Shown: positions 42,001 through 45,000 of the stretch, piece by piece
Position numbering within the stretch: position 1 is the first letter of the stretch
How the letters are laid out: every line of letters starts with the position of its first letter
From: a virus
Lineage: Duplodnaviria; Heunggongvirae; Uroviricota; Caudoviricetes
Strand: one strand, 5' to 3'
Length of the DNA stretch: 64,000 nt
Virus record (IMG/VR): IMGVR_UViG_646311923_000012
Program-made: the position numbers

Positions 42001-45000
42001 CAAGCGAACGGGTTTCTGGATTGAGAGAGATCGTGACCCACCCTAACTACATAATCCTGTACAGAGTAGCTGCTTCAAGCATTGAGATTGTAAGCGTGAC
42101 ACATTCTCGGCGACAATTTCCCTTCTCTATCTGAGTTGAACAATTTTCATACTCCCTCTTTCGAGGGATTTTTTTGCCCAAAACAACAATTAAAAACTGT
42201 TGACACAAAACAGTTTTTAATTGTAGATTACATAAACCAACCACCCACCCCGCCCCACAGAACGCCGGGCAATACTTCGAGTTACCAAGCAGTGGTCAGG
42301 GGGTAAGTAGCCAGCCCGAGGCGTATGAACATGACGGCAGGGTTCAACTTTAATAACTATGCAGCAGGTTTTTGTTCCGCTACCCGGCGTTAAGGGGAAA
42401 TGAGGTCAACATGGATACTATCGATCTTGGCAACAACGAATCTCTGGTGTACGGCGTGTTTCCCAACCAGGACGGTACATTCACCGCGATGACGTATACC
42501 AAAAGCAAAACGTTTAAAACCGAAAATGGTGCCCGTCGCTGGCTGGAAAGAAACTCAGGTGAGTGATATGGATTTCGACACAATCATGGAAAAGGCTTAC
42601 GAAGAATACTTCGAAGGCCTTGCCGAAGGCGAGGAAGCTCTCAGCTTCAGTGAGTTTAAACAGGCGCTTTCCAGTTCGGCAAAATCTAACGACTAACGGA
42701 GTTAAAGATGGAATTTAAAGATTTACTAAAAGAAATCCAGGAAATTGCAGCACATGCACTTCACCAACGTCTGAACGAAGTTGAATTAGAATCTGCAACG
42801 AAGAAATACATTGATAATATGGCTCGTAATGTGCGCGATGCGTTTACCGGATTGTACTCTGTTTCGGTAACAAACAACCAGAATACTGAAGAAACTGCAA
42901 AGCGGATTGCCTCGGTGATGGGTTTTCATGTCGAGGAAAAGTATTCAAAAAAAGAATTCTGGAAAACTACAAAAAAATTGCAGAGCGAGAACTGTCATCT
43001 CCTGCGGCAATCGCTTCTTTCTATGAGGAAAGTTATTCAGATGACACAGGATTACCGGAACTGCTCTCATTACTTGAAAAATTCGGAATTATCATGAAAG
43101 GGACTGCGTCGGCGGATTTCACATACTCAATGATGGCTGCTGATGGAGAGCCTTTTCCTCCCGAACTTAAAATAACCCCCGGCAATCATCCGATGGTAAC
43201 AATAAGAGCAATAGAGAATTACTGGTTTAATCCAGTTCAACAATAGTTGGTCTTTGCAATATTTTTAATGGGCCACTACGCCCTTAATCTCGGGCGGCGT
43301 TTAACTCTTTATTCAGTAAATCAGACTGATACTGATTTGGCTTTGTAATGATACTGTCAAGTTTTGATATATGAAATTCAACATGTTCTGGACAGTTAAA
43401 AATGTAATAACCGCCCTTCTCTAAAAAGCCAGAAAGAGCGTTACAGGCAGGGCATGGTTTGTTTGGCATTTTATCCTCCATTAAGGGCTGAATTAAAAAT
43501 GGAGACCAACACGCTGCTACGTGTGGTCGTGCGCCGGACACAGATAAGAATCCGGCACTGACAGTTTACTGAAAGGATATATCCCTGAAAAGTCAGGGCA
43601 TAACACGAAAGTGCACGGCGAAGTCCTTCTCCCTTAGAGCCGTCGTTAAATTTAATTCGACCGTGCGCTTCCGGTTGTGGCAATCCGCGAAATGGCGCGG
43701 CGGTAAGTATGGCGGGGTTATTCTTTCCCCGTTGAGGACACCGGGTTGTCAGGTTGACCATACGCTTAAGTGACAACCCCGCTGCAACGCCCTCTGTTAT
43801 CAATATTCTGGTGACATTTGGCGGTATCAGTTTTACTCCGTGACTGCTCTGCCGCCCTTTTTTAAAAGTGAATTTTGTGATGCGGTGAATGCGGCTCAGC
43901 GCACGCGGAACAGTTAAATCGGTAAAGCGGTCATTTGCTGAGTAACGAGAATGCTCTGTATCCGGCGTTAATTGTTAACTGGTTAACGTCACCTGGAGGC
44001 ACCAGGCACCGCATCACAAAATTCATTGTTGAGGACGCGATAATGGAAAAGTTATCATGTAATGCCAGCACGTCTGAACTTCGTTTCGAAATTGGCGTTA
44101 TCACTGGAGACAAAACATTTATTGAAGACGCCATTAAGCAGAGAAAACTCGAGCAGGACCTGTTAAATGAAGTATGCATTCCTTCAATGCTGGCTCGTCT
44201 GGACCTGCTGCAAAAAGGATATAAACAATGAATACAACATTTGCACTCGTTCTGACAGTTTATCTTGTTTCCGGCGAATCTCTTGAGCTGGTGACTGGCT
44301 TATACGGTTCAATGAAAGAATGCATGGCTGCAGCAGCAGAACAAAAAATTCCCGGTAACTGTTATCCGGTAGATAAAACTACTCACACTAATAATAACGA
44401 AATACCGGCAGGACTTTAAAACAGCACCGTAATTAATATCCGGTTTCATTTTTATATGCCAGCAATGGCAGGGATTTGTTCACCCTTAAATCTGTAATGA
44501 GGTTAAAACACAATGAGTAAAATCTTTATTTGCGCTGCTATTCCTGACGAACAGGCCATAAAAGAAGATAGCGCTGTTGCGGTGGCCACTGCCATTGAAG
44601 CCGGTGATGAGCGTCGCGCACGCGCAAAATTTCACTGGCAATTTCTGGAGCAATTCCCGGCAGCTCAGGACTGCGCTTATAAATTTATTGTCTGCGAGGA
44701 TAAACCCGGCATACCCCGCCCTGCCCTCGATTCCTGGGATACCGAATATATGCAGGAAAACCGCTGGGATGAGGAGTCAGCTTCCTTTGTACCGGTCGAA
44801 CCAGAATCCGATCCGATGAACGTCAATTTTGACAAGCTGTCCCCTGAAGTACAGAACGCAGTCCTGGTTAAATTCGACACATGCGAAAACATCACCGTTG
44901 ATATGGTGATTAGCGCACAGGAATTACTACAGGAAGACATGGCAACATTCGGCGGACATATCGTTGAAGCGTTGATGAAAATGCCAGAAGTTAACGCCAT

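Follow-up and report, generated by a model that had tools for sequence, protein, structure and literature searches.

The subject of this report is a cluster of small genes at positions 42411-44419 of IMG/VR virus record IMGVR_UViG_646311923_000012, a 64,000-nucleotide stretch of DNA assigned to the Caudoviricetes and referred to as a whole as the window. In bacteriophage lambda, the small early genes of the PL operon block FtsZ-dependent division and exclude other phages. The operon in the window occupies the same position and follows the same logic, although it has no sequence relation to lambda Kil, Ral, Gam or N, and the division block that is due to Kil in lambda would, by analogy with characterised dicBF operons, be due here to a small RNA (sRNA) and a MinC-binding protein. 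A comparison of kil with dicB has been drawn before (PMC8630535).

The closest described system is the dicBF operon of the Escherichia coli K-12 prophage Qin, with dicA/dicC, ydfA, ydfB, ydfC, dicF, dicB, ydfD and ydfE. In K-12, DicA represses the promoter dicBp, from which a polycistronic transcript begins upstream of ydfA, and the precursor of the sRNA DicF is cut at an RNase III site to give a 190-nt form and at an RNase E site to give a 53-nt form, the processing data being from K-12 only; no function is known for ydfA, ydfB or ydfC (PMC10448788). The 3' region of DicF represses ftsZ and other residues repress xylR and pykA, and the genes flanking dicF vary, as published surveys show (PMC5069750). 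In enterohaemorrhagic E. coli (EHEC) O157:H7 there are four copies of dicF, and DicF regulates pchA (PMC11774850, citing Melson and Kendall 2019). DicB binds MinC and ZipA and so blocks Z rings, and through MinC it also blocks ManYZ-dependent entry of phage DNA, which gives superinfection exclusion against phages entering through ManYZ (PMC6832061). YdfD of Qin is a lysis protein that lyses cells by inhibiting IspG (PMC8835842). A second point of comparison is the prophage CP-933P/Sp12 of O157:H7, with paaR2-paaA2-parE2, ydaS, ydaT and the promoter PL933P (PMC8630535).

Gene content of the early-left cluster

With a probability of about 0.9, we read the cluster as an early-left operon of the dicBF type from a lambdoid prophage, of the E. 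coli Qin/O157:H7 kind. The dicBF operon is already known, the sequence is already public and annotated, and the cluster is ordinary because its genes are those of this well-studied operon. In the list of open reading frames (ORFs), 42411 is the start of ydfA and 44419 the stop of ydfD, and the order after the promoter is ydfA, ydfB, a variable cassette, dicF, dicB and ydfD, followed by the gene for an 823-aa exonuclease, xis and int. The features of the operon are these:

42411..42566, plus strand: ydfA, 51 aa, DUF1391 (PF07151 at 1.7e-28; phrog_751)
42568..42696, plus strand: ydfB, 42 aa, acidic ('protein YdfB' in a 100% identical record; phrog_2061 at 3.5e-27)
42697..43527: variable cassette, 831 bp, in place of K-12 ydfC, where homology to Qin breaks
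43528..43805, plus strand: untranslated DicF precursor region, conserved (about 90% identity with K-12)
43806..43863, plus strand: dicF sRNA, 52-53 nt, with terminator hairpin and T-run (Rfam RF00039)
43864..44030, plus strand: spacer between dicF and dicB, with a closing long-range stem of 24 bp
44043..44231, plus strand: dicB, 62 aa, cell-division inhibitor by homology (PF05358 at 7e-39)
44228..44419, plus strand: ydfD, 63 aa, DUF1482, hydrophobic N-terminus (PF07358 at 2.8e-19)

Four of these features fall into curated families far above threshold (PF07151, PF05358/NF049927, PF07358 and RF00039). DicB matches PF05358 over its full length (residues 1-62/62) with 131.8 bits against a cut-off of 27, and NF049927 with 123.7 bits against a cut-off of 100. 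YdfD combines a PF07358 match (69.2 bits, cut-off 25) with the N-terminal hydrophobic segment of DUF1482 proteins, and its ATG overlaps the dicB stop codon (ATGA), giving translational coupling. The dicF gene belongs to RF00039: the match at 43806-43857 spans model positions 1-52/52 and scores 77 bits (gathering threshold 48, E = 3.8e-16), the model's paired positions are all kept, and a T6 run follows the terminator hairpin. The sole difference from K-12 dicF is A for G at position 11, and the 3' half that pairs with ftsZ is identical. At the promoter-proximal end, where a dicBF operon carries ydfA (DUF1391) and ydfB, the two genes are about 98% identical in DNA to those of K-12 Qin by pairwise alignment; YdfA is the same at 51/51 residues, its gene showing 4 synonymous and 0 non-synonymous changes, and YdfB at 41/42. 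Across diverged copies the changes in the coding genes are skewed to synonymous ones, as measured by the ratio of non-synonymous to synonymous substitution rates (dN/dS), which indicates purifying selection.

The likeness to Qin extends to arrangement. The genes stand in the same order and orientation with respect to those for the repressor, the exonuclease and the integrase, and homology resumes at about 43528 and continues through the precursor, dicF, the spacer, dicB and ydfD into the start of the exonuclease gene, with dicB and ydfD of the window being full-length family members. The precursor block is conserved, and so is the spacer with its stem, in which 43864-43887 pairs with 44007-44030 (24 bp, 92% complementary) and which ends directly before the dicB ribosome-binding site. 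This stem could be a double-stranded RNase III substrate or could control dicB translation; the region 43660-44050 as a whole is strongly structured (z = -4.78). A match to the sRNA STnc100 within the spacer (43871-44020, plus strand), including the CACCUGGAGGCACCAGGCACC hairpin, scored 33.6 bits, below the threshold of 47, and was not called a member. Minus-strand long ORFs overlapping this part of the operon, such as 43471-43803, and a 98-aa extension of dicB from a TTG start were judged spurious because they are unannotated and cover the untranslated precursor of DicF, which is conserved.

Some similar early-left operons have dicB and/or DUF1482 and lack DicF at the Rfam gathering score. 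The loci from related prophages are designated L004, L005 and so on, and those in which DicF falls below that score are L004 (strain ETEC6334, about 3560-3660), L013 and L008; in L013 a minus-strand DUF1883 gene stands upstream of dicB in place of dicF. It follows that dicF is not universal in these operons.

In public genomes the segment 42100-44560 (2461 bp) is found by megablast at 100% identity over the full query in many chromosomes of Shiga toxin-producing E. coli (STEC), including O103:H2, O111:H11 and O45:H2, and 4768 of the 5426 complete E. coli genomes match some part of it; annotated sequence identical to the locus is present in hundreds of genomes. RefSeq annotates one such 100% identical record with a helix-turn-helix (HTH) repressor, a RelB-type antitoxin and a RelE/ParE toxin upstream, then DUF1391, YdfB, a hypothetical protein, a minus-strand hypothetical protein, DicB and DUF1482, and, downstream of the last, the exonuclease, a DUF4224 protein, the integrase and then yccA.

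An earlier sequence-only reading of the window had placed five or six short ORFs between the immunity region and the exonuclease and described among them a 42-aa acidic protein and a small membrane protein. The ORFs are where it put them, and the same genes are annotated in the identical RefSeq record; the acidic protein is YdfB (42568-42696, 11 Asp/Glu against 3 Lys) and the membrane protein is YdfD (44228-44419). Its condition for doubting the ORFs, a lack of conservation or coding signal in related prophages, does not hold, since both are present (dN/dS 0.54 for dicB, 0.35 for ydfD and 0.18 for the zinc-ribbon gene of the cassette). Its statement that none of the genes has a recognisable family was mistaken, and the sensitive profile searches it proposed for family-less genes returned curated families in Pfam, NCBIfam and Rfam. 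It also missed dicF (52 nt, 43806-43857), which lies in an ORF-free gap. From position it had suggested host-takeover, anti-restriction, kil and superinfection-exclusion functions: host takeover, a kil-like role and exclusion are known for DicF and DicB, which would play the part of Kil by inhibiting division, if K-12 is a guide, whereas searches of Pfam, PHROGs, NCBIfam and PADLOC turned up no homologue of anti-restriction or anti-RecBCD proteins. In the same four collections no ORF matched Kil, Ral, Gam, SieB or a known defence system, and nothing was found for any ORF beyond the matches reported here. Sequence searches of the PDB with YdfA, DicB, YdfD and the zinc-ribbon protein gave nothing significant, and for DicB no solved structure was found there.

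A damaged gene pair in the ydfC slot

Between ydfB and dicF, where a dicBF operon has ydfC, the window has instead the 831-bp cassette, which begins where Qin homology ends, at the ydfB stop codon, and ends where it restarts by pairwise alignment. The cassette is a convergent gene pair, both members of which are damaged in the window, and it lies outside the dicBF mechanism. It is present in 410 of the 5426 complete E. coli genomes, many of O157:H7 among them, nearly always at an identity of at least 99%. Its two genes are as follows:

42708..43246, plus strand: forward gene, frameshifted, of a 177-186-aa family (phrog_1363, phrog_2151)
43284..43469, minus strand: zinc-ribbon gene, CxxC...CPxH then a helix, 61 aa here (phrog_10133 at 7e-48)

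The forward gene appears as a 129-aa ORF (42708-43097) and a 50-aa ORF (43094-43246), which the sequence-only reading had counted separately. The 129-aa ORF has homologues that for the most part are 177-214 aa long and match only its first 65-72%; a 179-aa protein (P0009) runs continuously from its N-terminal part into the frame of the 50-aa ORF; alignment places the lesion at a run of seven A residues (42971-42977), where the near-identical intact copy L005 has eight; and the diverged ETEC6334 copy in L004 (186 aa) confirms the frame. The two ORFs are therefore one frameshifted gene, and the dN/dS in the frame of the 50-aa ORF is 0.21. Its product joins a conserved helical domain at the N-terminus, about 65 aa long, to a C-terminal domain designated type A. 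An AlphaFold2 model of the intact 179-aa protein, made with 10 homologues, reached a pLDDT (predicted local distance difference test score) of 48 and was unusable.

The zinc-ribbon protein of the same earlier reading exists as a 61-aa CxxC...CPxH ORF, with the correction that it is encoded on the minus strand, antisense to the operon, and so lies outside the early-left transcript. It is truncated by TAA at 43284-43286, where L005 has TCA, with the loss of the last 19 residues; the intact gene would extend to 43227 (80 aa) and overlap the 3' end of the forward gene by 20 nt, and homologues in L005, ETEC6334 and a distant protein, P0125, have 80-91 aa. A GGAGG ribosome-binding site precedes its ATG, and a promoter scan found no evident promoter for it. 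The ligands C, C, C and H, two conserved metal-ligand pairs of the CxxC...CxxH form, do not vary among 4 sequences with identities down to 42% and predict metal binding, and the modelled fold has a beta-hairpin-rich N-terminus and a helix (pLDDT 74). The dN/dS of 0.18 argues that this is, or was until recently, a real gene. Family scans and the PDB sequence search matched it to no named family, and both cassette genes fall only into PHROGs of 'unknown function'. The zinc-ribbon family is rare, with two 90% clusters in a set of 5.8 billion proteins; an exhaustive HMMER search gave one true distant homologue, P0125, and two long repetitive proteins that were dismissed as compositional matches. 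In IMG/VR only near-identical copies were found, and there was no match in INPHARED phages (tblastn) and none among GTDB species representatives. Among the protein clusters, those of the broken cassette proteins are the larger, with 100 members against 27 and 64 against 12.

In related prophages the forward N-terminal domain (about 65 aa) occurs with C-terminal domains of different types, and each type has its own minus-strand convergent partner. The comparison covers about six contexts:

Type A: forward protein 179 or 186 aa, zinc-ribbon partner 80-84 aa (L004, L005)
Type B: forward protein 212 aa in E. coli and 200 aa in Salmonella, orthologous 69-aa helical partner (L013, L018; frameshifted in L019)
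Type C: forward protein 129 aa, partner 99 aa, overlap of 131 nt (L016)
Pair coordinates: L004 2512-3271, L005 197-959, L008 5001-5565
Pair coordinates: L013 2501-3349, L016 2001-2559, L018 2001-2813

The distant prophage L008, which has neither dicF nor dicB, encodes a 135-aa protein that shares 34% identity with the C-terminal domain of type A (E = 1e-13), the N-terminal domain being absent, and this gene converges, with an overlap of 119 nt, on a homologue 42% identical to the zinc ribbon. The co-variation of the partners suggests, from a small sample of sequences, that they form a functional pair, and the matched-pair pattern in the ydfC slot is undescribed in the literature searched.

One tentative explanation, which we consider unlikely as it stands, is that the intact cassette is a self-contained two-gene module, either toxin-immunity-like or an exclusion system, set in the ydfC slot and made up of a variable C-terminal effector and a specific convergent partner acting as antidote, regulator or sensor. 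This is compatible with the dicBF explanation for the rest of the operon, and it is consistent with the three C-terminal types each having its own convergent partner, with the retention of both partners and of the convergent overlap in the distant L008 pair, and with purifying selection on both genes; paired lesions in the window would also fit the loss of a linked pair. Toxin-antitoxin and toxin-immunity systems are recognised by their domains and by co-directional genes; here there is no similarity to toxin, immunity, toxin-antitoxin or defence families, the convergent layout is atypical for such pairs, and partner co-variation is the only resemblance. The sample of contexts is small, the reverse gene has no evident promoter, and the linkage could merely reflect the positions of recombination junctions. 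The broader proposition, that the ydfC slot is a swap site for polymorphic pairs belonging to an undescribed effector/partner system (toxin-immunity-like, exclusion or anti-defence) of which the window holds a doubly inactivated example, is likewise doubtful.

Immunity region and proposed course of events

The dicBF reading of the operon extends to the region upstream of it, where the following features were found:

40846-41118: cro-like gene
41227-41628: HTH repressor, 133 aa, DicA-like, 28% identical to DicA (E = 6e-12)
42153..42175, plus strand: intrinsic terminator, 6-bp stem and T7 (terminator scan)
42186..42224: putative OL-type operator, 39-nt palindrome ACAATTAAAAACTGT-N9-ACAGTTTTTAATTGT
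42200..42229, plus strand: predicted dicBp/PL-type sigma-70 promoter, TTGACA-18 nt-TAGATT, 10/12 matches

A divergent repressor/Cro-like pair and a palindrome-overlapped promoter upstream are features of a dicBF operon, and in the window the 39-nt palindrome overlaps a predicted promoter that is near consensus. The OL-like palindrome to which the sequence-only reading had drawn attention is borne out: a twin, 79% identical, lies at OR (41152-41190) between the cro-like and repressor genes, and the 64-kb window has four copies of the half-site ACAATWAAAAACTGT, all of them in the OR and OL palindromes, against a chance expectation of 0.30. By analogy with dicBp under DicA (PMC10448788) and with PL933P (PMC8630535), these elements may serve as promoter and operator of the operon. 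The terminator closes the repressor-PaaA2-ParE transcript and sits directly 5' of the early-left promoter. The 181-nt leader (42236-42415), in which a nut-like or other RNA element was sought, has no unusual structure (z = +0.81) and no Rfam match.

The repressor also forms part of a three-gene repressor-PaaA2-ParE module of the paaR2-paaA2-parE2 type at 41227-42134. With CP-933P the window shares the cI-like repressor, the PaaA2-type antitoxin and the ParE toxin, Cro-like and YdaT (CII-like) genes divergent from the repressor-toxin-antitoxin genes, and, downstream of the toxin-antitoxin pair, a promoter of the PL type with operators, after which come division-inhibitor genes. The operators differ: CP-933P has 18-bp repeats of the GTTTAGTAA type, a consensus that was sought in the immunity region of the window and is absent from it, whereas the window has the 39-nt palindromes with half-site ACAATWAAAAACTGT. 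From this difference we infer an immunity specificity other than that of CP-933P.

Promoter, operator and gene order are read from the sequence, and the functional steps follow from homology with Qin of K-12. In the lysogen the DicA-like repressor would occupy the operator and keep the operon almost silent. Upon derepression a single polycistronic RNA would be made, whose untranslated block would be cut by RNases III and E, with the intrinsic terminator setting the 3' end, to yield DicF of about 53 nt. With Hfq, DicF would pair through its 3' half with the ftsZ ribosome-binding site and through other parts with xylR and pykA (pchA in EHEC). DicB would bind MinC and bring it to ZipA at midcell, so that Z rings dissolve, and through the same MinC contact it would block ManYZ and thereby exclude lambda-like phages. 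With the hydrophobic segment at its N-terminus as anchor, YdfD would inhibit IspG and cause lysis. The net effect may be arrest of host division and later lysis on induction, with low-level exclusion and regulatory effects in lysogens.

Weighing the dicBF reading

Several points weigh against an unqualified identification with the K-12 operon. All of the functional steps are carried over from K-12 and are to that extent presumptive. DicB and YdfD are 55% and 63% identical to the characterised K-12 proteins, with dN/dS of 0.54 and 0.35, and with such modest identity the targeting of MinC/ManYZ and of IspG could differ. ydfC is absent, its place taken by the convergent two-gene cassette, and transcription of the operon must cross the antisense gene at 43284-43469, which could attenuate dicF and dicB. 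The repressor and operator are unlike both those of DicA/K-12 and the published CP-933P operators, so that regulation is deduced from architecture only. The window further differs from Qin in having the PaaA2/ParE pair and a terminator between repressor and promoter, and in having intact exonuclease, xis and int genes, which are pseudogenes in Qin.

Improbable, and more so than the two-gene module considered above, is that the cluster is what is left, decaying and without function, of a defective prophage, its ORFs being kept by clonal inheritance only. Lesions have inactivated or truncated both cassette genes, the copies of the cassette are nearly all at least 99% identical and so uninformative on selection, and an IS3-family element lies in a tail-fibre gene (253-2879, minus strand), of which two pseudogene fragments remain; tail-fibre assembly is probably defective in the prophage. 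Yet ydfA, ydfB, dicF, dicB and ydfD are intact, the synonymous bias holds across diverged copies, the pairing of the Rfam DicF model is fully kept, and promoter, operator, ribosome-binding sites and the dicB-ydfD coupling are intact by sequence. K-12 Qin, which is still more decayed, expresses functional DicF and DicB (PMC10448788). Least credible of all is that these are family-less orphan genes encoding new anti-restriction, RecBCD-inhibition, kil or exclusion proteins, since, although the early-left position is correct and no function is known for ydfA, ydfB or either cassette gene (the matches of these being 'unknown function' PHROGs and a domain of unknown function), dicF, dicB and ydfD are in curated, experimentally characterised families, which refutes the idea for these three, no Ral, Gam, Kil, SieB or PADLOC model is matched, and the locus is already annotated in its many identical copies.

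Elsewhere in the window, a hokD/sok type I toxin-antitoxin locus lies at 34722-35046 (minus strand), with sok at 107 bits in Rfam and hokD annotated in the identical record. Typical STEC cargo comprises a sodC moron (7246-7773, plus strand), a PerC-family regulator (24102-24416, minus strand) and a SASA-family (NanS-p-like) esterase (27561-29411, minus strand). Three tRNA genes at 29901-30150 (minus strand) are Arg-tct, Arg-tcg and one with a CAT anticodon (Ile in RefSeq, Met by ARAGORN), and just downstream of this cluster is a full-length STnc100 sRNA (29634-29824, minus strand; 138 bits).

The dicBF-type operon in the window is thus the re-identification of one of the oldest known prophage host-interference operons, and there is little novelty in it. 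Its use is as a correction: before small ORFs of an early-left region are called orphans, they should be compared with DicB, DicF, YdfA and YdfD, and the apparent gaps between ORFs should be searched for RNA genes. The dicF gene in the window is probably one of several copies in EHEC-type strains, where DicF copies matter for virulence regulation via pchA (PMC11774850, citing Melson and Kendall 2019). The convergent-pair cassette is the one lead, and a modest one: if it is true that the cassette pairs are effector/partner modules, they would make up a small new class of prophage accessory systems.

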